A stretch of DNA of 64,000 nt from a virus: IMG/VR virus record IMGVR_UViG_3300017917_001562, positions 44,582 through 108,581 of that record. One strand, given 5' to 3'. Position 1 is the first letter of the stretch, and every line of letters starts with the position of its first letter. Below the pieces are notes generated by a model, which worked only from the letters and a program-made list of their open reading frames with translations, ran no database searches and was not told the origin of the DNA. The translations under genes were made by a program, and so were the position numbers. Shown here in pieces: positions 37,198-54,921 of this stretch.

Positions 37198-37258
37198 ATT
37201 AGATCCTTTATAAAAATGTTATTGTAAATTATTGAAAAGTAAAAATCAATTTAATTGG

Positions 37259-37336
37259 ATAAATATTAGTGTAGTTCGCGGAGCGGGAACTCCCAACTAC
37301 TCTATGATTGAAAGGAATCACAGCATGAATATTTAT
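37259..37336 (+). promoter_or_regulatory. structured leader of the GIY-YIG gene, copy 2
   Basis: ATAAATATT...AATATTTAT inverted repeat enclosing GTAGTT-CGC-GGAG-loop-CTCC-C-AACTAC and GATT-GAAAGG-AATC hairpins. Confidence 0.65.
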
Positions 37337-37915
37337 TTTAAACCCACCTACCTGTATATTAAACAACACAACATAACAGGATTGAAATACTTTGGGAAAA
37401 CAGTTAAACTTGATGTGTTTAAGTATAAAGGATCGGGTAAACATTGGTCGAGACATTTAAAGAAATACGGTAATGATGTTACTACTGTTTGGCACCAACT
37501 TTTTCACAATAAAGAAGAATTAGTTGAATTTGCTACTAAGTTTTCTATAGATAACGACATTGTGAATTCCCCGCAGTGGGCCAACTTAAAAATAGAAGAT
37601 GGGTTATGGGGTGGTGGGGTAAAAGGTATAAAACTAAAGCCCATGTCTCTGGAACATAAAGCAAAGTTATCAGAGTCGGTTAAAAATGCATACGAGAAAA
37701 AAGGTTGCAAAATAAAAGACAGAACTCCCCTTGTTATCAAAACTAAAGTTAAAAAAGTAGGATGGACTTGGGAAAAGGAAAGTAAAGAAAGGCACTCATT
37801 GCGTCAATTGGGAATTCCAAAAAGACGAATGTGTTGTGTACATTGCAAAAAAGAAGGTAGCATAGCTAATATTCTTCAATGGCACGGTGATAAATGTAAA
37901 ATGAACCCTGTTTAG
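37325..37915 (+). CDS. GIY-YIG-like homing endonuclease
   Basis: YLYIKQH..TGLKYFGKT, YKGSG.HW, WANL..EDG..GG, NUMOD3-like SLEHKAKLS, C-terminal CxxC..WH..KC; paralogue of 18555..19175. Confidence 0.85.
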   Translation: MNIYFKPTYLYIKQHNITGLKYFGKTVKLDVFKYKGSGKHWSRHLKKYGNDVTTVWHQLFHNKEELVEFATKFSIDNDIVNSPQWANLKIEDGLWGGGVKGIKLKPMSLEHKAKLSESVKNAYEKKGCKIKDRTPLVIKTKVKKVGWTWEKESKERHSLRQLGIPKRRMCCVHCKKEGSIANILQWHGDKCKMNPV

Positions 37916-37981: not shown

Positions 37982-39097
37982 CTATTTGCTCAATAATATA
38001 TTTAATTCAGGCCAAAGTTCTTGAAAACTATATTTTGGTATAATGACCTGTTCCATTTGTTGTATCCAATCTAAAAATCGTTTTGATTTAGTGGAGTCTT
38101 CAATATCATCTAATAAACTTTGTTTTACACCAGTTAAAAAAATATCATCAAATCCCAAACTATCTATTTCTTGTACAGCTAAATCTCTTATTGGTTTACT
38201 GTGTCCAAATGATAAAAAACTATCTGTAGATAAATTATATGGATCATTGCTAGCAAGTCCTAATTGCCAATTAACTCTTAAATTGCCTTTGCTGTCAGCA
38301 AATTCATATAATTCTTTTAATCTTGTTGCATTGAAAATAGTATATACTGGGTGTAAAGTAACATTGTTGGTTGTAAAATCTATTTTAAGTTGCTGGATAT
38401 TTTTACATAGTAAATCCCAATCACCGCCTGCCCTTACATATTCAAATCGATCTTCTATATTATCAAAACTTAAATTCCAATAAGTTTTTGGAAAGTTTAA
38501 AAGTTTTTCATAGATTTTGTTTTTTGTCAAATCAACACTACCGTTTGTAAGTACATCAATTTTAACATGTTTAGGCAACATATCTAACAATCGTATATTG
38601 TTTTTTTGCAGTAAGGGCTCGCCACCTAACAAATAAACACATTCAATTGTATCTAAGTTTTCTTCTATTAGGTCAAATAATGATTCTGTGTAATCTCTAT
38701 TAACAGATTCTATAGGTAAGTTTCTTATTTTTCGCCATTCGCTGCTGTCATGTGTGTTACAATACCTGCAAGTTAAATTGCAGACATTGCTCCAGCGGAT
38801 ATCAATTAGTTTTAATTTTCTATATTCTTGTCGAGGAAATTGATCATTGAATGCTGACCATTGGCTACTGCCTGGTGCTGTTGATTCTATGCTATAACAA
38901 CCTGAACAATAGTTATTTGCTTTACCATTCTTTAGATCATGTTGTAGTTGAATAAATTTGCTTTTTTGAAAAATTTGCTGTACAGGTTCTTGCCTTACAC
39001 TACCCAAAGGCACCGACCCACTACAGCATAAACCAACATAGCCGTTCACAGACACGAACAGCCCTGTGTCTACAGCACTACAGTAATAATCTTTCAT
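37982..39097 (-). CDS. radical SAM protein with SPASM/twitch-like N-terminal domain
   Basis: N-terminal C..G.V.LCC...CSGC; CNLTCRYC; GGEP; TNG. Confidence 0.85.
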   Translation of the reverse strand: MKDYYCSAVDTGLFVSVNGYVGLCCSGSVPLGSVRQEPVQQIFQKSKFIQLQHDLKNGKANNYCSGCYSIESTAPGSSQWSAFNDQFPRQEYRKLKLIDIRWSNVCNLTCRYCNTHDSSEWRKIRNLPIESVNRDYTESLFDLIEENLDTIECVYLLGGEPLLQKNNIRLLDMLPKHVKIDVLTNGSVDLTKNKIYEKLLNFPKTYWNLSFDNIEDRFEYVRAGGDWDLLCKNIQQLKIDFTTNNVTLHPVYTIFNATRLKELYEFADSKGNLRVNWQLGLASNDPYNLSTDSFLSFGHSKPIRDLAVQEIDSLGFDDIFLTGVKQSLLDDIEDSTKSKRFLDWIQQMEQVIIPKYSFQELWPELNILLSK

Positions 39098-39100
39098 TAA

Positions 39101-39535
39101 TTATTTAAGACTGGCTCTCAGCATCCAACCATGTTTTTGGTGTGCGTCTAGTCTTTCAGCTAAAAAGTTGCTGAGACCGTGTTGACCTTCGCGTTCTGCT
39201 AGGTCGTAGACCAATTTGATTACCTTAAGAATCTTATCGTTGTCAGCAAGTAATTCTGCAACCATTTGATCCTTGGGCAACACATCAGTTTCATCTTCAA
39301 TTTGGGTAAGCATACTTAAGCGTGTATAACTACCGGGAGTATAGCTGCCTAGTTTACGAATGTTTTCAGCAAAAGAATCAATACTGCCATACACTTCTTC
39401 GTAAATTTTACCAAACAAGTCATGATACTCTAAAAAGTCTGAACCTTCTACATTCCAATGAAAGTAGTGTGCTTTTAGATAAAAACTAAATTCTGTGCTG
39501 AATGCAATTTTCATTGCTTTTACTAATTCGTCCAT
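39101..39535 (-). CDS. dps: Dps family ferritin-like DNA-protection protein
   Basis: HYFHWNVEG..F...H.LF..IYEE...D.FAE.IR, KHGWML. Confidence 0.92.
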   Translation of the reverse strand: MDELVKAMKIAFSTEFSFYLKAHYFHWNVEGSDFLEYHDLFGKIYEEVYGSIDSFAENIRKLGSYTPGSYTRLSMLTQIEDETDVLPKDQMVAELLADNDKILKVIKLVYDLAEREGQHGLSNFLAERLDAHQKHGWMLRASLK

Positions 39536-39536
39536 T

Positions 39537-39965
39537 TTATTCTGCCTTTTTATTCTTGTCTTTTTCAGTTATGGGTCCGCCTGTGATCCAAGCTCTACAA
39601 CTTCTTGCACCTGCACATTTGAAGTGCAAAAAGTTACAATAACCAATGTCAGCAATATTTATGCTGGCATTAGCATCTATGTTTGGTTCATCACCTTTGA
39701 TACCATTGGCTATGCATTCGCGCATACTGTCGCTGACATCAAAGGCCGCACAGTTTGCACACTGCATGGTTTTTGCAATAGCTTCTGTAACTTTAAATCC
39801 TTTTGCAGCTTTTTTCCAATAGTCGCCGGGATTATCAGGGTTAGCAGGACCATAATTATATTCATCTATGGCCTTTTGTCTATTTTTAAGATTAATATCT
39901 ATGTTATGAGTAGCTACAGGACAATTCTTTGTAGCTGCTTCCATGATCTGTATATAATTACGCAT
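39537..39965 (-). CDS. Cys-rich hypothetical (probable virion) protein
   Basis: CANCAAF, GYC..LHFKC...RSC.AW. Confidence 0.7.
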
Positions 39966-42900
39966 ATTTACGACCTTTGCGAGGTAAACTACCAATTGGA
40001 CTGGTAGCGTTTTCGTCACCAATGGTACTAGCACGACCAGTAAAGTCACTTATCCTAACTTCTTTTAATTTAACTTCCTTAATCTTAGGAATGCCAAATG
40101 CTCGTTGTGCTTCTAATACAGCAGCAGGACCTTGCGATTCTGTTATGTACCAGCCTTGGCTATCTTGTGTCATTTTAAAATCATTGCGTAAACTTGCAGT
40201 GTCTGTGGCTTTGGGTGTAAAATAAAATCTTGTTTCTACTACACCTTGTGGTGCTTGTTGTGCTTGAACAGCCTGTTGAGGATTTTGACGGAGCATTTGT
40301 GGGGCCATTGTAGCTATGTTTTGAGCATTAGGATTAGGTGCAGTTACTGCATTTACAACTTGGTTAATTAAACTATCATGTTGTTCTAGCTCTTGATAAA
40401 CATGTTCGTTTTCTTGATCAAGTTGATCTAATTTTGGTTTTACACTATTAGCTAAAGCTGAATTTAAATTATCAATCTCTGCATTTAATTTTTCAATTTG
40501 TGCTGTATAATCTTTAACTTGACCAACTCGAGCCTGTGCTGTTTTTGCAGCCGCTTCTGCATCTTTAAACTGTTGTTCTAATTTTTCAATTGCTTTAGCA
40601 TCAACAGTTTCACCTTGCTGAACAGCCGCAATGGCCTTTTCTAGTTCTGCAATTTTATCAGCTGATACACCGGTGCCCTGTTTGTTTTGCATACGCTGTT
40701 CTAAGTCAGCGATCTGACGCTCTAGTGTAGCAGTAGCTTCGGGATCAATGTCAGGTGTGGCCTTAAGTTGATCCAGTTGTTGAGCTAGTGTTTGTAACTG
40801 AGCTTTACTGGCCTGTTGCTTTACTTTTTCTTTTTCTAATTCGCCGCGATGCTTGGTAAGTTCCTTGCTAGTAATTTCACCTTGTTCAGCACCAATGTCT
40901 GCTCGTTCACCTGCAGCCTGCAACTCTGATTTTAATTCTTTATTATAAGCCTTGGTCTTTTCTAATTCTTTGAACAATGCCACAGCCACTTGTTGTTCGG
41001 GAGGTACACCACTCAGTCTTTGTCCTTGTACAAAATTCATCATCTTTTGATAATCTTGTGAAGGGGAAGCTTTGGCTTCGTTGGTTTTCTTTTTATTGCC
41101 CCAGTTTGCTGCACCTTTTTTACGGCACTGTACTAAGGCACCTGATGCATAAGCACTTGGCCATACTTTGTAACGGCTTTTAACTTTGTGATAGCAAGCG
41201 TCTTGTTTTTCAGCTAAGATTAAATTACTAAATGCTGGACCACCACACTCTGGACAAGTTTGTTGAGCTTCTGCCACATCTTGTTGTCTACGATGAAGTG
41301 TAACTTTATGTTCACCAGGCGTTTCTTTCCTCCATTTTTGTGCGGCACCTAAACTATCAAACTTCGGACCTGGTTGAAACTCTCCGTTTTTGTCTTTGGT
41401 ATGACCACGATAGTAATGTTCTTCATCGTATGCATCTGCGTTAAATCCTTCCGCTACACCTTGCTGACCTGTTACAGCCTGCAATAGTGCTCTTGCAACT
41501 ACACGATCTTTTTCCTGTTCGTCGTTGTCTAGTTCAGAATAACTAATTTTCATTAGTTTAGCTCTTTGCTGTAGTTTAGCTTCAAGTTTTCCCGCTTGAC
41601 GAAGTTTTTCGGTATCGTCAAATTGATCAGGGTCTTGAACAAATCTCAGTGCTGTGGTATTCCAACCTTTGTGAATTGCGTCTGCAATAGCTTCAATGTC
41701 TGTTACACCAGCATCAATCATTTTTTTAGCATAAGCAGCAGATTGAAGATTGGCTTGCCATCCAAAATTGTTGCCAGGTGTGCTACGACCATAACCATAT
41801 GCTTGGTCCAAGGCTGCATCGCTGACAGCAGCTAACTGCTGTATAGATAAACTATTAGCGTTTTCTGTCATTGGGCTTTCTACTGGTTCTGCTGAAGTAA
41901 CTGATATAATTATTCCACGCCTCTTAAACTTCTTTATTGTTTTGGCTATTGCTTCTTCTTTTGAATCTGCTTTAGTTTTGGTAGAACTATGAATTGGTTG
42001 TCCAACCTGTGTATTCCATTGAAAGTTAACTTTCCAAATTGGGGCAGTGTCTACAGCCACAGTGGGTTTAGCTTGAAGCAATGCATCTTGTTGTTTTGGT
42101 GGCAACGATAAAAACTCAGTTAGTTTCATCTTCTTGCCATTAATTGTTACAAGGTTCTGTCCACCACCCGCAGTGCCACCTTCGTATTTGATCCACTCCA
42201 GTGCAGGGCTTTTTACAATAAAACTGGTTAAGAAGAATGGTTTTGGATCGTTTCGGTTAGGCGCAAGATAAGATCTTCTGGCAGGATATGTCATTGCGTC
42301 AATATGTGTAAACTTCATGCCGTTTCGTGCAAGAATGCTTGATAGTGTATCGTAGTGGTTTTGTTGGACTTTACTAAAAGTATATGTGTCAGGTTTGCCA
42401 GAATACTGTGTTGCACCAGGACTGTATATGCTGCCTTCCGCCACACCTTGCTCGAACGATTTGAACACAGAACGAGCAACTGCTTTAACCTGTTCTGGAG
42501 AAAGTTTTTTACCTAGTTGCTCCTGGGCTTGTTGATAGATGTCTTTGATATCTGGATTGTTGAAATCGTCTTCGTAGTCCCAATATGTAAAGGACACTTT
42601 GTTACCATCTACATCAAGCACATACACCATTTGATCTAAATCGTAATCTTGCTTGACAATGGCAACGCCTTCCGCCACACCTTGCGTCAGGAATGATTGC
42701 AAAGCGTCGGATCTGCTAGGATGTTTTAGTTTTCGAAGTGCCTTTGCTTCAATCTGTCTAATTCTTTCGTTAGATACTCCTAATTTTCTGGCAACATCGG
42801 CTAATGACATATCATCATAGAATCTCATGTCGATGACTGTTTTTTCAGTATCAGTTAAAGTGGACATCTGTTTGGCCATCACACGCTGCAATTCTGCTTG

Positions 42901-43605
42901 GTCATACTTGTCGTTGGGATCATAAGGTTCGTCGTATTTTGTATCATATCGATCGGCATTGTGCACCGGATCTTGCGGGTCCAGTGTAGGCATCTTATTT
43001 TTTGCACCCTTATATGTTGCGCCGTTTGGATTGTATCGTGATATCTGTTGATTAGGATTTGCTTCCGCCACACCTTCATTGGATTTTTTCTTTGTAGCAA
43101 CATTGATCGCCGCACCACTACGCTCAGGATTTGGGTCTTCTCTGCGCTTTTTAGCAGCCGCATACTTACGGCCTTTTTTGCCTAGTGCATGTGCCTTGGC
43201 CTGTGGTAAACATTTTGGTTTACCTTCACTGCTATCGCCTCTAGCACAACTACCACGAATTTCGCCATCAGGTCCAAAACGAACCCACTTTTCTTTAAAC
43301 CACTTGCGTAGATTTTCTGTAACAGGTGCTGACGAGTCTGGTTCTAAATCATTTGTACGGTCACCGCGGTAGTTTTCTAAATTGTTGACAATTTCATCAA
43401 CAGCCATATCAACATCACTCATGCTGTGAATGTCATCTGCTTCCTCAGCATAATCAATAATAGCATCACCCACTACTTCATGCCCATAACGAGTAATTGC
43501 TTCGGGATATTTTTGTTGTAAGCCGTTAAACAATATCTCAGCCAAATCAATGGGACTGATATTTTCAAATAGTTTATTGTTATTATATAAATCGTTTAAA
43601 AACAT
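39958..43605 (-). CDS. modular polyprotein-like protein (sigma70 region-4 module, RyR-like module, coiled coil); probable internal head protein
   Basis: 1215 aa; five (Q)GVAE-type linkers; [30 protein letters not shown]; IH.GW...YSEL...EQEKDR. Confidence 0.75.
41268..43076 (-). repeat. in-frame linker repeat CAAGGTGTGGCGGAAGG (QGVAEG)
   Basis: 19-bp exact copies at 42433-42451 and 42667-42685; near copies at 43062-43076, 41447-41464, 41268-41283. Confidence 0.85.
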
Positions 43606-43609
43606 CTCG

Positions 43610-46600
43610 TTACTTTCCTTGTTTAGCTAAAATGCCTGCTTGTTGTAGTGCTGTCTTAAGTGGGCCCGCCGCGGTTGGAGTTTCTGCAGCTTTTAGAACC
43701 AATGGAGTTATTGTACCCATTGCTCGTTGTTGATCTCTTGTTAAAGGCTTACCGTCATTGGCATTAACAATTGCCTGCGCCAATGCATCAGTGTTTGTTC
43801 CCGGAGGAGCAACACTGCCAATTGTATCTGCTACACCTCTTGCTGTGCTGGCATCAATGGCTTGATCTCTTTTTTGCTGTTGTTGCTGTGGTGTACCTGC
43901 TTGACTTGTTGCTTGTGTGCCCGCTGTTGTATCTTGTGCATAAGGATTGGTAGCTTGTCTTGCTGGGCTAGTTGCTTGCATTGTTGGGTTAGTTGCCAAA
44001 CTAGGAGGTTCTTCTTCCTTGATGGGCTTGTCATCTTTATCTTCAATGTCGCGCAATCTTTGCATTAATTTTCCAAGATCAACAGGACCTTGTTTCTTTT
44101 CCTGTGCTTTGGCTTTGGCTCGCAATCTATCAACTAAATCGTCAAACTCATCATAGCTGTAGCGTCCTGCAACTTTTTTATCATCGCGATTTTCTCTCAT
44201 AGCTATTTGTGTTTGTTGTGATTGTGCTTGTAATTTATCGTTATATTTTTTATCCATAGAAGCTATCCAATTACCTGCAGTAGTTGATGCTAATGCAGGA
44301 TTATTTTTGCTAAGGTATGCCATGCGTTCTTCGTGTGCAGGGGTGCCTGGAGCTCCTGCTTTTCTTGCTAATATATCTGCAACAGTTGCATTTGGCTCAG
44401 TTTTGGCAGCATTTAGTACCTGATTAGTTCCGGCAGGACCTATAAAGTGTGCGCTGTATACAGTGGCAGGGCTTACTGGAATTTTGTTTCTTTGCAATTC
44501 TGCTAAATTATTATTTAATAATTGATTTTGCATTGCTTCCTGAGTTTTAGCATCAAACACTGCATTGTCTGGTATGTCTAGTTGTTTTTTAAGGGCATCA
44601 AGAGTCGTACCTGTAAAACCGTACATACCGACAGCATTGGCTTGCCCGCCTCTGGCCTTTTGAAATTGTTGAACTTCAGACATGGTCATTTGATCTAAAG
44701 GTTTTGATTGACCTAGATTCTGTTGTGACCATTCTTCAGGAGTAATATAAGGTCTTCCTGCATTATCTTTAGCTCGCATCTTGCCACCAAAGAATCCATA
44801 GTGTCCGCTATAACTTTGACCTTCAAGCCCGCCTACTACTTTATTAAGGTTTGATCGATCTTGATATGAAAGATCGTATTCTGCAGGATTAGCAGCTTTG
44901 GCTCTAGAAACAATAATAGAATCAGTTGGATCTGCCATTCCTACATAAGCCTGTTGGCGAGGTGTAAGCTTAGACCAAGCTTCAGCTTTGGCAGGATCTT
45001 TACCAGTCCAAGGATTAACACCCGGGGCTGGTTTTGTTGGTGCAGGTGTTTGTCCTGATGTCCATGGTTCACCGGAACCACTAAGCCATGGCTGACCAGT
45101 TGTAGGTGATGTAACGGCATTGGGCGGGAGTTCAACTTTACCTGAGGATCCTGCAGGCACAGTAGGCTGTTGCGGTTTTTGTACTGGCGGTTTGGTCGTC
45201 GGAGGTTTAGCACCAGCAGTAAATCCCATTTGTTGGTTCCAATTTGCCGCAATCTTACTTAAAGTGTCACCTTTTTGTACAGTATAAATGTCACCATTGG
45301 GTGCTGTAATTTGTTGGCCTACATAAATCAAATTAGGATTTTTAATCTGCGGATTTAATTTAGCTAACTCTTGCCAAGAAGTAGATTTTAATTTACTGCT
45401 ATCTCCGTAGGTTGTAGATCTTGGATCAGTGTCACTGGTTTTTCTGCCAGATGGATCTAATCCTGTTGAACTTGGCTCCATTTGTTGTGGAAGTTCGTCA
45501 GCATCAATTTCTGGTTCCGGTGTTGTGTCGGGTTGAGTTTTTGCTGAACTGCCTGTGGGGGTAGAAATTCCTGATAGTTGTTGCAGTCTTGCAGTATTAT
45601 CATCTGTACTAGCTATTGGTTTAGCCGCTGGTTGTTTAACCAATGGACCTGCAGCTGTTGCTGGTCGTGTAGTATCAGGTTTAACAGGTGTGCTTTGAAT
45701 TTGTTTTTCTATTTCAGCTTTTTGTTTTTCTGCCTGTTGTGCTATTTGTTGATCAATTTGACGAATTACAGCTTTATGGTCCGCTGCAGTTGGCGGTTTG
45801 TATTCAATACCCGCTTCTGCACGTTGTTTAGCAAGCCATTCTGCTTCACTTTTGTTTAATTCACCTGAGTATGTACCTAATGCACCTGTCACTCCTATAA
45901 CACCAGGAATCAATCCTAAAATGTTTGCAGGTTCTGAATCTGTCCCTTTATAAATTGGTGATGGGTCTCTTTTAGGAAATGCTTTCGGATAAATGCCAAA
46001 AGGTGTGCCACCCGGTCCTTCGATAGGTTTAGTTTCTACGCCTTTATTCCAACCTGGCTTTCCAGGAACCATCTGATCAGATGTTGCACTGGGCGGTGTT
46101 GTTGTTGCTGTAGTTGTTGGTTTTGCGGCGCTAGTATCAGTTGTCTGATTAGGCTCTGCTGCCCAATTGTCTTCTTTAAACTCTTTATATTTTTCTTGTA
46201 GCTTACGCTGTATAGCAGTGTCTTTAGCTGTTTTATCTAATTCACCTAGGACACTTTCTTGTTGTTCTTCACTGCCGCCAACCATTTTATGTTTTGCATC
46301 ACTGGCCGGATCTGTGCCCATCCAGTAACCGGGAAATTTAGGACCAGTAGGATTTTTTGTAGCAGATGACATTGATTCAACAATGTACAAACTTTTTTGT
46401 ATATCAGTCATTTGTTCAAATTCTTTTAAATCTTTTAACGGTTTAAAGTCTGGTATGCCTTTAGGAGGAGTAGGTCCGCCAAAGCGCCAAAAGTCTAATC
46501 CACTGCCAATGTTATTGCCACCGGGAATAGGTATAGGCAACGGAACAGTTGGCGAAGGTTTAGTTTCACCTGGCTTAGTTGACTCCGGTTTAGATGGTGT

Positions 46601-46969
46601 TGGCTCTTGCCTGGGCCCCGGCGTTGGTTCTTGTTCTGGTCCGGGTATTGGTATAGGAGTTGGTGTAGGTATTGGCTTAACCTCTGGCCCTGGTGTTGGA
46701 GCAGGTTGTGGTTTAGGCGCAGGTGTTGGTTTTACATCGGGCCCAGGAGCAGGCTCTGGTGTGCTTGGGCGTGAAGGTGCTTCACCTGGTTTGGGTTGAT
46801 CTATCTTTGGTTGGGGTTCGGGTCTTGGTGTAGGTCTTGGCTCTGGTCTAGGAACCGGTTTTGGCGCTGGCCTAGGCTTTGGTATAGGGAGTTTAGGCAG
46901 TGCTAGCTCTGCTAATTTTTTAGCCTCAACTTCATTTAAAAAGTCCTGAAAACTTTTTTTATCGCTCAT
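43610..46969 (-). CDS. large Pro-rich virion-associated protein with LysM and lysozyme-like domains
   Basis: PEP/PTP repeats; [20 protein letters not shown] and [13 protein letters not shown]; E...Y...MT..EV...AVGMYGF..TL...FD..TQ...Y.AHF.G. Confidence 0.75.
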
Positions 46970-47547
46970 TACTTTTTAGCCTTAGGTTGCTTGTAAGTGC
47001 CGCCAAATAGTGTGCCTGTTTTGGCTTTGTTTTTAGGTGTAGGATTAACTACTGTAGCAACACTACCTGAAGACATTTCTTTTACTTGCTGATGGCCTTT
47101 GTTTGTGCCCAACAACTGTTGTTGTTTTTGTTTCAATTCCTTAAACAATTCTCCAGCTCTGGTGCTGTAACCTTCAACTTCAAGCGCATACTGGCCGATT
47201 TGTGCATCTGTGGCAGTCTTTAACCATTCATCGCTTTCTCTTTCCATTGGAGCGTTTTCTGCTATGGCCATTACATCAACTTGTTCCGGTTGCGCGGCCG
47301 CAGTCATTAACTCATATTCCATGTATTCTAACACGGTTTTTAAATAGTCATTTGCCAGTGTAATCTTACTGCTGACCCAGCCTTCTAAACCTTGGCGCTC
47401 GTCAACATTGCGTAATAATTTGTGTAGTTTCAGTGCGTACTCGGCAGCGTGGTATAGTTCTTCACGAGCCATTTGTACTTCGTGGTCTTGATGCACTGAA
47501 CTTGCATCTTCAACAAAGTTTTCGCCTAAAAAATGTGAACTTTTCAT
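46969..47547 (-). CDS. conserved hypothetical (probable internal head) protein
   Basis: DHEVQMAR.ELY...LEGWVSSKITLA.DYL; TAAATA upstream. Confidence 0.7.
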   Translation of the reverse strand: MKSSHFLGENFVEDASSVHQDHEVQMAREELYHAAEYALKLHKLLRNVDERQGLEGWVSSKITLANDYLKTVLEYMEYELMTAAAQPEQVDVMAIAENAPMERESDEWLKTATDAQIGQYALEVEGYSTRAGELFKELKQKQQQLLGTNKGHQQVKEMSSGSVATVVNPTPKNKAKTGTLFGGTYKQPKAKK

Positions 47548-47576
47548 AGTTTTATCCTGGATATTGTATATTTAGT

Positions 47577-47888
47577 TTAGATAATAAACTTACCGCAGTC
47601 TCTGTGTTTTATTGTATCATTGAAAGAAAGTGGATAAAATTTATTGTTTATGGCAAAATTTGCCATTCTGAATATACTAGTGTTTATACTTTTGTTAACG
47701 GATTCTATTTTTATTGTGTGTTCGCCTGGTTCTAGTTCTGCTACCAGTATTTCTCTAACCCAATTATGTGGATTGCGCCATATGTATGTTCGTTCAGTAT
47801 ATAAATCGTTGTCTATATAAAGTCTATATGCTTCGGGTTCAGTTTGCCATTCGCAATAAACATCAACTTCAATTCTTAGATCCTGCAT
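47577..47888 (-). CDS. hypothetical beta-sandwich protein
   Basis: YRLYIDNDLYTERT...L.PGEH.IKIE; distantly like the 49911/50358 pair. Confidence 0.65.
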   Translation of the reverse strand: MQDLRIEVDVYCEWQTEPEAYRLYIDNDLYTERTYIWRNPHNWVREILVAELEPGEHTIKIESVNKSINTSIFRMANFAINNKFYPLSFNDTIKHRDCGKFII

Positions 47889-48405
47889 TTTCCTTACCTC
47901 GACGCATGTTAAGCTGCCAGCGAGCCATGCGACCTTTTTCGCCTTCGGCATGTTTGAATTTTTCAAGTTGTGCTATTGTAGCATTTTTAGGAATGCCCAT
48001 TCTTTGGCTGAGACCTTTACGACCTGGGTTTTTACCATCAGCAAAGTTTTCTCCTACATTATAAGTAGGATCTAACTTTTGTCTAGGCCCTTTTACAGTA
48101 CTAGGGGGATCTATGTCAGTAGTTTTAAGGCCTGTTTTTTCTAGGTCTTTAATATATTTGTGTTCTTCTTCTTCACTGCCAAATGCCATAATGGTACTTG
48201 GTGGCCCTTGTCCAAAATCATGATGGCCTAGTCCTTTTAAGTTACTGATATGTTGTCCTAATTTATACCAGTCGTAGACATCGCTGACATCTACTCGCAC
48301 TGTACCTTGGGGCATAGTTGGTTTAAATTCGGGACCTGGGGGAGTATCATTTGGGTGATAATCTTCATCAAAATCCCTATGTTTAATAAACTCTTTTGCT
48401 CGCAT
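47869..48405 (-). CDS. hypothetical (probable internal head) protein
   Basis: MRAKEFI start; basic C-terminal module ENFADGKNPGRKG. Confidence 0.7.
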   Translation of the reverse strand: MRAKEFIKHRDFDEDYHPNDTPPGPEFKPTMPQGTVRVDVSDVYDWYKLGQHISNLKGLGHHDFGQGPPSTIMAFGSEEEEHKYIKDLEKTGLKTTDIDPPSTVKGPRQKLDPTYNVGENFADGKNPGRKGLSQRMGIPKNATIAQLEKFKHAEGEKGRMARWQLNMRRGKENAGSKN

Positions 48406-49880
48406 TATAGATCCAATGGCTTACTTTGAATAGCTTCCGGGTGTTCTTTGTTAAAGTGTCGCATAATAATGCCTGCTTCGGCATTAGCTTCATTTTCAAT
48501 TGGAGTGCCGGTCTCGCCGGCGCCTGCGTACATTTCACCATCTAAGTATTGTTTAAAATGTACTAGTTCATGCGCTAATGTACGCAGTATATCTACAGGG
48601 TGTCTATTTGCAATACCTAAATAAATTTTTAATTCATCATTAACAAAACGACCAAATGTTGCTTGACCGTCGTGTGCTTTTAAATGTTTTTGAATTTTAA
48701 TGTGAGGTAATTTATCGAGTTCTAAGTGTTTAGCTGCCAACGGCAAAAAATCAGCCAGCATCTTAGATATTTCTTCATAGCTTGCCCCGGTACCCTGATC
48801 TTCAGTCACTGATTTACTTTTTGTACTGTGTCCTGCTTGTCTTGCACGACGGCCAGCACAGTGAGCTCGTTGACTAAAACCTTTTGGATTGCTACAGTTG
48901 ATGCTTTTCTTATATTTCTTAGTCCACTTTTCCTCAAGCTCTTCTTCACCGTAACCTAACTGTGCCGCAGCTTGTTGTTGTGGACTAGCAATACCCGGTG
49001 GAGTAACTAAAGGCATACGAGGCTGTTCAGCTAATTTAAAGGCTTTAAGATTTTTTTGTATTGCGCCAGGTCTTATGTCCTGTGTCAAGCTCATGCTGTA
49101 TCTAGGATCTTTAGCTTGTTTCTTGCTGGCGATAACACCAACCCCGCCCATTTCCTCAAGGTGTCCGGGAATAGGACTGGCAGTGCCTGCACCGTCAGGC
49201 ATGATGTCTTCATTGGAAGTTGCGGGAATTTTATCAAAGATTGCAGCTAATTCTTGACTGGGTTTTGAATACATTTGTGTAAGGAATTCAGCACGGGCTT
49301 TAGCGTCTTTACGAATCTGATTCCATAAATTACGGCATTCTGTTCCGTGACTTACATCGTAATCCTTGCCTTTAATTTTAATTGTTTTGTGTATTTCAGG
49401 AATTACAATAACATAACCGTGTTGGTCAGCAGTAGCAGGATTTTTGTTTGTAGGATCCCATACTTTATAATAACTGGGACTGCCGGCGGGTTTTGTTATG
49501 TTACCATCTTTATCTTTTTGATCCCGTTTAGTGAATGTATCTGGATTTAATCTGTCTGCATCTGGCGCACCAACTGCTGTAATTAAAATTGTTGTAGTGG
49601 GATCAAAAGCTTCTGGTAATACATACATCTTGTTGGTTTCAACAATATGATTTCCGGGAACACCTGCAGCTGTGATTAATTGGTACTTGTCGTTAAAGTT
49701 AAATGGGCTTTTAGCACTACTGGTATCATTGCTAGTTAAAATGAAAACATTTTCATTGCCAAACTTCTTTTGTAGTTGTGCAAAAACCCCTGCATGTCCT
49801 TGATGGAAAGGCTGAAAACGGCCGGGGTAAGTGACAACGACACGGGGTTTATTTTGTTCGTATAATTCGTGGGCAAACAT
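48405..49880 (-). CDS. cytidyltransferase-like (HxGH) domain fused to a HExxH peptidase-like module
   Basis: YPGRFQPFHQGH; KKSINCSNPKGFSQRAHC; LRTLAHELVH..Q...ENEANA. Confidence 0.8.
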   Translation of the reverse strand: MFAHELYEQNKPRVVVTYPGRFQPFHQGHAGVFAQLQKKFGNENVFILTSNDTSSAKSPFNFNDKYQLITAAGVPGNHIVETNKMYVLPEAFDPTTTILITAVGAPDADRLNPDTFTKRDQKDKDGNITKPAGSPSYYKVWDPTNKNPATADQHGYVIVIPEIHKTIKIKGKDYDVSHGTECRNLWNQIRKDAKARAEFLTQMYSKPSQELAAIFDKIPATSNEDIMPDGAGTASPIPGHLEEMGGVGVIASKKQAKDPRYSMSLTQDIRPGAIQKNLKAFKLAEQPRMPLVTPPGIASPQQQAAAQLGYGEEELEEKWTKKYKKSINCSNPKGFSQRAHCAGRRARQAGHSTKSKSVTEDQGTGASYEEISKMLADFLPLAAKHLELDKLPHIKIQKHLKAHDGQATFGRFVNDELKIYLGIANRHPVDILRTLAHELVHFKQYLDGEMYAGAGETGTPIENEANAEAGIIMRHFNKEHPEAIQSKPLDL

Positions 49881-51941: not shown

Positions 51942-52673
51942 TTAGGGTATATAGACCTGTTTAAAAATTTGTGATACAATTCCCGGAGCCATTAAGCCCA
52001 AATATGTTAAAATTTTATCATCTTTAGCATAGATATAACAGCCCCTAAACCATAATCTTCTGTTTTCAAAGTTATATTTGGCTCCTTGTGGTACTTTGAC
52101 TTCGTCGCCTAAATTTTCCAAATATTGTCCTATGCTGACTCTAATGTCAGTATCTATGTTGTAATTTTCCTTAAAATATATTTTATATTGATATTCAGTA
52201 GGCTTTTTAACAACAATCTGATTAGACTCCAAAGTCAATTTGGCAAGTTCACTTTGCGGTCTAAAAATCTCTCTTAATGCAGCACTGTCGCCACCGGACA
52301 ATTCATAAAGCAGTTGTTCGTCATTGGTATATACAGATAGGTGTGGTTCTTCAACTCTGTATTTTACTGTGCTTTTGTTTTCAGTTAATACCTTAGTCCA
52401 ATATTCTAACTGTTCAACCGTGGCCGCTAAGTAGTCCTTTTTTCTTTGCGTTATGTAAGGAGTATGATTGTGCCCATGCCATTTGAAAAAATTGTATTTT
52501 CTTTGTTCAACAAAGCTTTCTATACTAAGCACATCGGGCTGAGTTCTTATAATTAACCCCATGGGCACATACAGTATGGCTTTATACACATACTGATTAA
52601 AAAACCTTTTATTAGTAGCTTTTACTTTACAGGTTGGATTTAACTTCGTCCAAGACAACGTATCCATTTTCAT
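51942..52673 (-). CDS. hypothetical phage protein
   Basis: 243-aa ORF downstream of clpA. Confidence 0.65.
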   Translation of the reverse strand: MKMDTLSWTKLNPTCKVKATNKRFFNQYVYKAILYVPMGLIIRTQPDVLSIESFVEQRKYNFFKWHGHNHTPYITQRKKDYLAATVEQLEYWTKVLTENKSTVKYRVEEPHLSVYTNDEQLLYELSGGDSAALREIFRPQSELAKLTLESNQIVVKKPTEYQYKIYFKENYNIDTDIRVSIGQYLENLGDEVKVPQGAKYNFENRRLWFRGCYIYAKDDKILTYLGLMAPGIVSQIFKQVYIP

Positions 52674-54921
52674 CTATGGCCTTATTAGTAGGGTAAAGGA
52701 TGTATTCGTTTTCACGAACATCAAAATCAAACTGGCCGTTGATAAAATCAACATACACAGTACAATTTTGTAAGTTTTCAAACAAAATCTTTTTACTCAA
52801 AGGTACTTTGATCAATTCATTTATCTTACGAGCAAGCGGTCTGGCACCCATCTTGCTGTCGTAACCTTTGTCAATAATTTCGTCGACAGCATCATCACGA
52901 ACTCTAACACTGATGTGTTTGTCACTTAGCAAGTCATTGATGTCTTTAATGAACTTGTCGACAATTCGTTCAATGTGTTGCTTGCTGAGTTTATTAAACT
53001 TGACCACACCGTCAAGTCTGTTTCTAAATTCGGGCTTAAAAAAGTCCTTAACAGCTCGGTCATCTTCGCCTTCGCGGTCTAGGCTAGTAAATCCAATGCT
53101 GTTACGCTCACTGTCTTGTGCGCCCAAGTTACTGGTTAAAATAACAATGCTGTTGCGGCAGTCTGCTTTTTTACCGTTACTGCTGGTAATGACACCTTCG
53201 TCCATCAAACTCAACAACAAGTTACTGACATCAGGGTGTGCTTTTTCAATTTCATCAAACAAGATGATACTGTTGGGATTCTTTTCAACTTCACTAATTA
53301 ATAAACCGCCACCTAAGTTGCCATCGTCATAGCCTACATACCCGGGGGGAGCACCAATCAATTTGGCTACACTGTGCTTTTCTTGATACTCGCTCATATC
53401 ATATCTTAATAGTTTCATACCAAGATTTTCAGCTAACAACTTAGCAAGTTCTGTTTTACCTGTGCCTGTGGGTCCTAAGAACAAGAATGAACCAACAGGC
53501 TTGTTCAATGCTTTTAGACCAGCACGGCTAACATAAATCTTTTCCAATACATTTTCAACTGCGGCATCTTGTCCAAACAGTTTTGATTTAATGTTAGGCT
53601 CAAGGCTTTCAAGATTTTTTGTAGTTTCATTGTCTAATTGGTGTACTGGAATCTTAGTAAACTTACTGAGACTGTCGATAATATGACTTTTACGCAGTAC
53701 AAAATTGAGCTGTGCAATTTTTAATCTTGCCATACTGGCATCAATTAAATCAATGGCTTTGTCAGGTAACCTTTTATCTGTTTGATATCTAACACTCAAA
53801 TCAACTGCGGCGTCAATGGCTTCATCGCTGACAGTGCCGTTATGGAATTCTTCAAAGTATTCTTTAAGTCCATGCAGAATGTCTTTGGCCACTGCGGGAG
53901 TTGGTTCTTCCACAGTCATGCGATAAAAGCGACGCATTAATGCACGGTCTTTTTCAAAACTCTGACTGTATTCTTCCCAGGTGGTGCTGGCAATGACTTT
54001 AATGTTGCCTTTGGTCAGCGCAGGCTTAATCATATTACTAAAGTCCAAGCTACTGCTGCTGCCTGACCCTGCACCACGCATGGTATGTGCTTCATCAATA
54101 AACAAAATACATCGGCCTTTTGTGGCCAGTGCTTTCATTACATCTTTAAACTTTTCTTCAAACTCGCCACGATATTTACTGCCGGCCAACAAACTGCCAA
54201 TGTCTAGATTATAAACAGTGTAGTCTAGCAAATAATCAGGCACTTCTTGTTCAAAAATGCATCTGGCAAGACCTTCGGCAATGGCAGTTTTACCTACACC
54301 GGGATCGCCTACCATTAGAATGTTGCTTTTATTTCTTTTTGCCAGTACTTCAACAATTTCTTGGATTTCTGTAGCTCTACCAATGACAGGATCGATTTCA
54401 CCTTTTTCAGCTTTGGCATTTAAGTTAGTACAATATTCGTTAAGAATAGCATCTGCTTGATTAGCAGGCTTTTTCTTTGTGTTCTTACTGAAATTCTTAT
54501 TCCAATAAGTGATTAATTTGTCTTTTTCAAACCCATACTTTCTAAGAAAGTAACTAGCATGGCTGGCTTCTTCATCTAAGATACTTAGAAATAAGTCAAT
54601 GACTTGCAATGTTGCACGACCGCTGAATAGAACCTGTGTAAATGCACGATTAAAAACACGCTCCAGCGTTCTTGTTTTCTTAGGAGTACCAGACTGACTT
54701 TTGTCAGTTAAGACCTGTGTTTGATTTGTAAGGTGTTGATCTAAGTCTTGTACCAGACTGTCTACATCAACACCATAGTCTCTGCAGAATTGACCGAATG
54801 TCTCGTCCTGAACAATAGCCAAAGCCAAATGTTCCAATGTGCTGTATTGATGATTTTTTTCTACTGCAATGGCTGTGGCCGCAGCAACGATTTTGTCAAT
54901 TTCTGGGGAAGATTCAAGCAT
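52627..54921 (-). CDS. clpA: ATP-dependent Clp protease ATP-binding subunit, ClpA-like
   Basis: Clp N-domain, DPVIGR, GDPGVGKT, FIDEAH, LPDKAIDL, GPTGTGKT, DEIEKAHP, MGARPL; no ClpB M-domain. Confidence 0.93.
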   Translation of the reverse strand: MLESSPEIDKIVAAATAIAVEKNHQYSTLEHLALAIVQDETFGQFCRDYGVDVDSLVQDLDQHLTNQTQVLTDKSQSGTPKKTRTLERVFNRAFTQVLFSGRATLQVIDLFLSILDEEASHASYFLRKYGFEKDKLITYWNKNFSKNTKKKPANQADAILNEYCTNLNAKAEKGEIDPVIGRATEIQEIVEVLAKRNKSNILMVGDPGVGKTAIAEGLARCIFEQEVPDYLLDYTVYNLDIGSLLAGSKYRGEFEEKFKDVMKALATKGRCILFIDEAHTMRGAGSGSSSSLDFSNMIKPALTKGNIKVIASTTWEEYSQSFEKDRALMRRFYRMTVEEPTPAVAKDILHGLKEYFEEFHNGTVSDEAIDAAVDLSVRYQTDKRLPDKAIDLIDASMARLKIAQLNFVLRKSHIIDSLSKFTKIPVHQLDNETTKNLESLEPNIKSKLFGQDAAVENVLEKIYVSRAGLKALNKPVGSFLFLGPTGTGKTELAKLLAENLGMKLLRYDMSEYQEKHSVAKLIGAPPGYVGYDDGNLGGGLLISEVEKNPNSIILFDEIEKAHPDVSNLLLSLMDEGVITSSNGKKADCRNSIVILTSNLGAQDSERNSIGFTSLDREGEDDRAVKDFFKPEFRNRLDGVVKFNKLSKQHIERIVDKFIKDINDLLSDKHISVRVRDDAVDEIIDKGYDSKMGARPLARKINELIKVPLSKKILFENLQNCTVYVDFINGQFDFDVRENEYILYPTNKAIDENGYVVLDEVKSNL

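Follow-up and report, generated by a model that had tools for sequence, protein, structure and literature searches.

The open reading frame (ORF) at positions 39958-43605 on the minus strand of a 64,000-nucleotide window, by which we mean the whole stretch of DNA analysed, belongs to a 108,581-bp IMG/VR virus contig with a G+C content of 37.8% and an estimated completeness of 31%. It is open through 1215 codons, and we interpret its 1215 amino acid product (P0001), with a probability of roughly 0.6 on the basis of comparative sequence analysis, as a head-cargo polyprotein of an uncultured T4-type jumbo phage. The chain would start with a short leader resembling the T4 capsid-targeting sequence (CTS), followed by approximately ten independently folding modules, including a copy of sigma-70 region 4, small basic cysteine-containing modules and several unknown folds, and would end in a constant coiled-coil and C-terminal part. 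All module edges are proposed to take the form hydrophobic-x-Glu, five of them being the stereotyped junction Q-G-V-A-E-G, and a prohead protease of the T4 gp21 type would cut this junction after the Glu inside the prohead. A single gene could in this manner supply the capsid with small proteins in varying combinations, which would leave with the DNA at infection. At the DNA level, the 15-18 nucleotides (nt) of the junction are very probably the point at which whole modules have been gained, lost, exchanged or reordered in frame among related phages.

The junction as peptide and as DNA

The original prediction described five linkers between unrelated modules, and all five are present, in the form [Q/E]-[G/D]-V-A-E-[G/A]. 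They comprise EGVAEA at positions 43060-43077 (residues 177-182), QGVAEG at 42667-42684 (residues 308-313), 42433-42450 (residues 386-391) and 41446-41463 (residues 715-720; with GTA and GGA codon variants), and QDVAEA at 41266-41283 (residues 775-780), all on the minus strand. The second and third lie within the 19-mer that had been reported as duplicated, which is indeed identical at 42433-42451 and 42667-42685, while a third copy at 41446-41464 has two mismatches; no such repeat is expected (100 shuffles). The proposed search of the genome for further copies returned the 15-mer core (two or fewer mismatches) five times in the 108,581-bp contig, on each occasion within this ORF. Four of the five junctions employ GTG, compared to 11.7% of the valine codons genome-wide, and four of five employ GCG, compared to 6.7% of the alanine codons.

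A search of 5.8 billion proteins with the ORF product yielded 1297 matches, of which the best 119 (117,385 residues) were used for motif counts. In these, GVAE occurs 285 times against 3.05 expected by composition, with counts of 0 to 8 for scrambled words. Across 182 junction contexts with unrelated flanks, a set from which junctions with similar flanks had been dropped, the information is restricted to [KEQ]-Q-G-V-A-E-[GA] and the flanks are featureless. The spacing between junctions in the homologues has a median of 110 residues and a mode of 60-80. The homologues carry a variety of other payloads, including Zeta-toxin/AAA_33, ParB_N, Pol-beta nucleotidyltransferase, GNAT, methyltransferase, SLT, GH19, LysM and PG_binding_1 domains, as well as additional copies of sigma region 4.

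The conservation of the linker at the nucleotide level, which had been proposed from the window, extends far outside this ORF. Codon usage was compared in 62 junctions of IMG/VR loci with less than 40% identity over the 24 flanking residues. GGT is used in 59 (background frequency in the same ORFs: 0.47), GTG in 48 (background: 0.20) and GCG in 47 (background: 0.08; binomial p: 1e-38), and the third codon positions are scarcely more variable than the first. At least 120 IMG/VR contigs, drawn from many samples, contain the exact 18-mer. It is in frame in all 101 copies from the 80 IMG/VR loci in which the frame was checked (L113-L192), where the open frames have a median length of 548 amino acids. 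Furthermore, the complete 352-kb genome of a relative (G001) contains 13 near-copies, every one on the coding strand and in one frame, with 11 inside four genes at 183-193 kb. This excludes both a genome-wide DNA signal and an out-of-frame function.

Exchange of modules at the junction

The product of 39958-43605 comprises approximately ten modules that are mutually unrelated, as was originally proposed, and the only names assigned by Pfam are Sigma70_r4 (residues 247-295; e-value: 1.2e-17) and a weak DUF5872-like match. Single modules share 70-85% identity with hundreds of proteins that differ otherwise. Nearly all of the 1297 matches align to just 7-15% of the query (70-85% identity), a pattern typical of proteins with a single module in common.

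The gain and loss of modules bounded by the repeat, which had been put forward as a test, can be observed in several pairs of relatives, close orthologues of ~92-94% identity differing in entire modules with their boundaries exactly at the junction. Module order, which if fixed among orthologues would have refuted the original prediction, is fluid. The closest orthologue, the 1695 amino acid protein P0002, shares 90-97% identity with P0001 in the blocks corresponding to residues 1-181, 391-719, 720-779 and 830-1215. Four other modules of 82, 62, 65 and 67 residues replace the sigma and 72-residue modules between the first junction and the third, while three extra modules are present at later junctions and another insertion is located past the TNE edge. 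In the loci L006 and L007, which share ~92% nucleotide identity, two modules stand in opposite orders (A-B and B-A), with L007 carrying two additional modules, and the flanking alignments share a 19-nt overlap that is exactly the junction. Similarly, L030 and L075 differ cleanly by the presence or absence of one module, and here the overlap measures 22 nt. Internal ends of nucleotide homology numbered 252, and 17.9% of them fall within 20 nt of a strict junction, compared to 3.9% of random positions (4.6-fold).

Short-homology recombination or copy choice may underlie this exchange. The PeSL cassettes that Arbiol et al. reportedly described in 2010 are short conserved boundary sequences said to mediate modular gain, loss and swapping among T4-type genomes. 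PeSLs pair an early promoter with a stem-loop, lie between genes and move genes in their entirety, whereas the junction described here is intragenic, coding and always in the same frame. Conserved as DNA, such an in-frame crossover site would clearly illustrate how a sequence can render domain shuffling safe. Concerted evolution within a genome was also considered and rejected, as the variants are not significantly more alike inside a locus.

Proposed processing of the chain and comparison with known systems

T4-type prohead proteases cleave on the C-terminal side of Glu (PMC5694885), and the linker had been predicted to satisfy their hydrophobic-x-Glu rule. This agrees with the 109 junction copies defined by DNA similarity alone, in which the third residue before the putative cut (P3) is Val in 90, Met in 10, Leu in eight and Ile in one, and thus LIVM in 109/109, while the last residue (P1) is Glu in 100/109. 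The intervening P2 residue is varied (Ala, Thr, Ser, Glu, Lys and others), and the second base of the P3 codon is invariant. The retention of LIVM at P3 and of Glu at P1 in mutated copies indicates selection on the peptide besides that on the DNA. All five junctions of P0001 read V-A-E, with a hydrophobic P3 and Glu at P1. The motif [LIVM]-x-E precedes the basic two-Cys module in 56/56 contexts, and the same applies to a module characterized by the sequence CWKGY.

The N-termini of the family resemble the T4 CTS, MKTYQEFIAE (PMC8442874), with starts such as MRATEFIVE, MIIDELFE and MSNILKGLNE. The N-terminal module of P0001 follows other leaders in P0037, P0066 and P0069 with the same hydrophobic-x-Glu end point, and a given module may lie equally far behind the Glu of a leader or that of a junction. 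At 188-201 kb in G001, the junction proteins are adjoined by a series of genes with CTS-like starts. It can also be observed that, in some of the 18-mer loci (L113-L192), a CTS-like leader ending in ..FIIE is fused straight to GVAEG, which gives the junction the look of a general-purpose adaptor placed after the targeting signal.

Homologues of T4 head genes are present in the relatives. Peptidase_S77 (T4 gp21) and Gp23 are both encoded in all three junction-protein-bearing relatives that are at least 90% complete. Their capsid protein contains Leu-Ala-Glu ~20 residues ahead of the conserved mature core, where the propeptide should end, and shares ~66% identity with those of PA5oct-type Pseudomonas phages, a 349-kb Vibrio phage and a Sinorhizobium phage, and ~64% identity with those of ~350-kb Escherichia phages. 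The cyanophage T4-GC119 proteins (L092:3539-4162, S-B68; L093:3530-4597, S-RIM2) consist of these small basic Cys modules (WF..KW, DUF5872-like and CWKGY) strung together without the GVAE junction. One of these proteins, with two shared small modules, is annotated as 'structural protein' in GenBank; proteomic data for T4-GC119 could not be traced, and Sullivan et al. 2010 refer only to a hypothetical protein in a mobile cassette.

Taken on the motif and gene-content evidence above, we judge it somewhat better than an even wager that the prohead protease cuts the junction, while delivery of the cargo into the host appears evenly balanced. A number of observations weigh against the polyprotein interpretation. 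The module interiors of P0001 contain nine [LIVM]-x-E motifs against 13.4 expected (z: -1.4), and no signal of site avoidance could be detected, as [LIVM]-x-E is not depleted inside modules in either P0001 or 70 dereplicated homologues. In the latter it is enriched 1.41-fold, and the control patterns E-x-[LIVM] and [LIVM]-x-Q are enriched too, which renders this test uninformative. The junction is furthermore much stricter than the loose T4 rule, so that another enzyme could be involved. Neither Peptidase_S77 nor Gp23 gave a match in the 31%-complete contig, and tblastn against a phage collection produced only single-module matches, mostly to cyanophages, and no cultured phage with this architecture or junction. 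Approximately three quarters of the ends of nucleotide homology are located away from strict junctions, many of these representing looser hydrophobic-x-Glu edges or mere divergence. Junction variants differ by 1.56 positions within a locus and 1.71 between loci (p: 0.10), and ongoing gene conversion within a genome is not demonstrated by this likeness. Finally, the short CTAAATA motif described below is the sole pointer to late expression of the putative cargo operon.

The motif [LIVM]-x-Gln is over-represented in the module interiors of P0001 (29 against 17.3 expected; z: 3.3) and is enriched 1.37-fold in the family compared to 1.09-fold in other phage proteins. This could reflect the replacement of Glu by Gln at would-be sites, or only the periodicity of secondary structure.

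It is unlikely, in our estimation, that the product is an uncleaved multidomain protein of the polyvalent type, in which the junction is a spacer and its DNA identity a by-product of modules being copied with their flanks. Recombination alone can yield nucleotide identity, module exchange at the junction is shown, the site-avoidance signal was not found, and some polyvalent proteins, such as the virion RNA polymerase of N4, are packaged unprocessed (PMC5512222). Spacers are, however, usually variable and of low complexity, whereas seven residues are fixed here over 182 unrelated contexts; the mutated copies hold their P3 and P1 classes, which argues for selection on the peptide, and the junction Glu aligns with the terminal Glu of the CTS-like leaders. 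The strictness of Q-G-V-A-E-G, which far exceeds hydrophobic-x-Glu, would also suit cleavage by another enzyme or at another time, be it by a host protease, another phage protease or after injection, with the prohead protease uninvolved, and Iyer et al. envisage that polyvalent proteins are processed after injection (PMC5512222). We regard this as improbable, given that no peptidase domain was found in the product of 39958-43605 or in the scanned neighbouring genes, that the nearby 'ATP-dependent protease' is a ClpA/B-type unfoldase without a protease domain, and that the leaders and the gp21 homologues of the relatives favour the prohead route.

The near-equal conservation of synonymous and non-synonymous sites raises a further alternative, namely that the repeat acts chiefly as a signal in DNA or RNA (Chi-like, a Shine-Dalgarno-like pause or regulatory) with the peptide as a passenger. 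The repeat holds AGGTG, which is close to the GAGGTGG ribosome-binding motif enriched upstream of genes in this DNA. An internal translation start was nevertheless rejected, as there is no start codon at ribosome-binding distance; a Chi-like or genome-wide signal was rejected on the grounds that the copies in this contig and in the 352-kb genome all occur on the coding strand in one frame of cargo-type genes, with none intergenic, antisense or in another frame; and a rare-codon pause fails as the sole cause because GGT and GAA are common codons. The peptide class is, moreover, kept in mutated copies, and a signal of this kind is therefore highly improbable.

The polyprotein interpretation leads to a broader proposal, which we advance tentatively and at rather less than even odds, that the junction is dual-purpose. 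As peptide it would be an optimal cut site for the prohead protease and as DNA a fixed 15-18-nt crossover, together allowing a whole community of giant aquatic phages to swap in-frame cargo cassettes, for example for anti-defence or host-takeover proteins of which the lone sigma region-4 module could be one. Such an element would be the phage counterpart of exon shuffling within a single gene. Cleavage of the junction would mean that tailed phages rely on polyproteins to stock the capsid with numerous small injected proteins. In that case the junction would be a simple sequence tag by which candidate injected effectors, among them anti-defence proteins and transcription decoys, could be picked out of metagenomes in their hundreds.

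The closest known systems are the T4 internal proteins and the polyvalent proteins of Iyer et al. 2017. The former (IPI, IPII, IPIII and Alt) share with P0001 a short leader ending in hydrophobic-x-Glu and, going by its complete relatives, a T4-type protease in the lineage (PMC8442874, PMC3012670, PMC5694885), as well as small, often basic and highly diverse payloads in which only the targeting and cleavage signal is conserved. In T4 itself, the targeting sequence alone is conserved among very diverse payloads (PMC3012670, PMC12373910). Each T4 payload has its own gene and is cut once or twice, whereas up to 12 putative payloads share a frame here, with a repeated internal site between them that is conserved also as DNA, and the two groups are not homologous in sequence. 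Polyvalent proteins, which are encoded by phages and conjugative elements, are comparable in combining 2-15 unrelated domains with heavy shuffling and a proposed delivery with the DNA (PMC5512222), and the payloads of the two groups overlap in ParB, lysozyme-type and nucleotidyltransferase domains. For these proteins, a built-in zincin-like metallopeptidase is proposed and no linker is mentioned (PMC5512222), whereas neither Pfam nor PHROGs revealed a peptidase in the product of 39958-43605, several modules of which lack a recognizable fold. In phiKZ-like giant phages (SPN3US and 201phi2-1), the prohead protease cuts many head-internal proteins, including ejection and inner-body proteins, after the Glu of A/S/G-x-Glu, some of them multiply, and these are then ejected (PMC5694885). 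These are, however, products of separate genes with long propeptides, for which neither a repeated inter-module junction nor cassette exchange has been reported.

RNA-virus polyproteins are comparable single products, from which individual functional proteins are released by proteases that cut at recurring sites. They have a fixed gene order and replicative functions, whereas the order is fluid here and the modules would be accessory cargo of a tailed phage. The motif GVAEG was found in no relevant paper in the literature, nor was anything comparable for polyproteins of jumbo phages.

Modules of the chain and neighbouring genes

Along the chain, all of which is encoded on the minus strand, the isoelectric point (pI) of the modules swings between ~4 and ~10. 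The CTS-like leader (positions 43564-43605; residues 1-14) ends in Leu-Phe-Glu, where it is predicted to be cleaved. It is followed by an acidic N-terminal module (43315-43563; residues 15-97; pI: 4.1), which ends in VTE and is also found in P0002, P0003, P0004, P0037, P0066 and P0069, and by a small basic two-Cys module (43078-43314; residues 98-176; pI: 10.4; phrog_23735). The latter is the most frequent shared module and is also present in the cyanophage T4-GC119 proteins. The sigma-70 region 4 module between the first and second junctions (42685-43059; residues 183-307) shares 45-56% identity with the C-termini of RpoD. Pfam identified neither region 2 nor region 3 beside it in this product, and it thus constitutes a lone region-4 module rather than a sigma factor. 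Speculatively, if it were released in the host, it could compete with region 4 of the host sigma-70.

An acidic 72-residue module (42451-42666; residues 314-385), which occurs in other contexts in P0027 and P0069, separates the second and third junctions. Downstream of the third junction, a basic block ending in MTE (41863-42432; residues 392-581) is common only to the close orthologue P0002, with no homologue among the examined loci. The adjacent all-alpha module (41464-41862; residues 582-714) has ~30 homologues, in some of which it is located right after the leader. An AlphaFold2 model of residues 582-719 has six helices and a mean predicted local distance difference test (pLDDT) score of 92.4, with confidence dropping at the junction. 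Comparison of this model by Foldseek and VIA-align revealed no clear solved relative, the best match being a helical domain (Z: 6.5). The fourth and fifth junctions enclose a 54-residue module (41284-41445; residues 721-774), which is 97% identical in P0002 and placed there between different neighbours.

The basic four-Cys module (41077-41265; residues 781-843; phrog_727 and phrog_38880) comprises CPxCGG followed by the DUF5872-like part and ends in TNE. It is conserved at the DNA level in ~300 cyanophage records, and its inner LAE/K edge corresponds to the module start in cyanophage proteins and in P0114. The PHROGs families matched by this and the other small basic Cys module are unnamed. 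The additional boundaries that had been proposed from the window, VTE/N (97), MTE/N (581), LAE/K (799) and TNE/A (843), are correctly placed, and comparison of the homologues supports them as module edges.

A region rich in Gln, Glu, Lys and Ala (40237-41076; residues 844-1123), which ends in VVE and is conserved in P0002 and P0003, probably forms a coiled coil, as judged by eye. The constant C-terminal module (39961-40236; residues 1124-1215) forms the extreme C-terminus of many family members. In its AlphaFold2 model, the pLDDT is ~90 at model residues 8-64 and below 50 in the tail, and the module is accordingly modelled as a small alpha/beta domain with a conserved disordered tail. Foldseek returned no clear solved relative for this model, with weak ferredoxin-like matches only, and the ESM Atlas held no usable match for residues 391-719 or 1116-1215.

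Four of the five neighbouring genes, all on the minus strand, have CTS-like starts (39537-39965, 43610-46969, 47869-48405 and 48405-49880), the exception being 46969-47547. The downstream gene at 39537-39965 overlaps the stop codon of the ORF and encodes a stand-alone module of 142 residues with a CTS-like start ending in Ile-Met-Glu. Its body matches the CPPATQD-type module, which follows the leader in P0017 and P0018. Upstream, in the same operon, 43610-46969 encodes a 1119-residue LysM protein (e-value: 3e-11) with a CTS-like start ending in Phe-Leu-Asn-Glu, and LysM, SLT or GH19 domains are found in many of the homologues that share modules. The neighbours with CTS-like starts include the LysM protein as well as a cytidylyltransferase-like enzyme. 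The whole 10-kb block may represent a head-cargo island.

A candidate late promoter, CTAAATA, is located on the minus strand ~30 nt ahead of the gene that opens the operon (47576-47582, approximate, placed by eye). CTAAATA[C/T] is ~8-fold enriched upstream of genes, with sites in the window at ~47580 and ~49910, and in G001 CTAAATA is found ahead of the genes for the scaffold and the prohead core as well as of two large neighbouring genes in the head-gene block. The T4 late promoter TATAAATA was rejected as a candidate, given that it is under-represented in the window (one copy against 5.9 expected), and judging from these motif counts CTAAATA[C/T] probably replaces TATAAATA as the late promoter of the clade.

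Additional genes can be observed further from the ORF. The 764-residue product of 52627-54921 (minus strand) is a double AAA+ unfoldase of the ClpA/ClpB type (Clp_N, AAA, AAA_2 and ClpB_D2-small), in which a protease domain was not seen, yet it carries the PHROGs label 'ATP-dependent protease'. Directly downstream of the putative cargo genes and tightly packed with them are 39101-39535 (minus strand), encoding a Dps/ferritin-like 'DNA binding protein' (phrog_3636), and 37982-39097 (minus strand), encoding a radical SAM enzyme. The sole plus-strand gene in this long minus-strand block, 37232-37915, codes for a protein whose N-terminus resembles, by eye, that of a GIY-YIG homing endonuclease.

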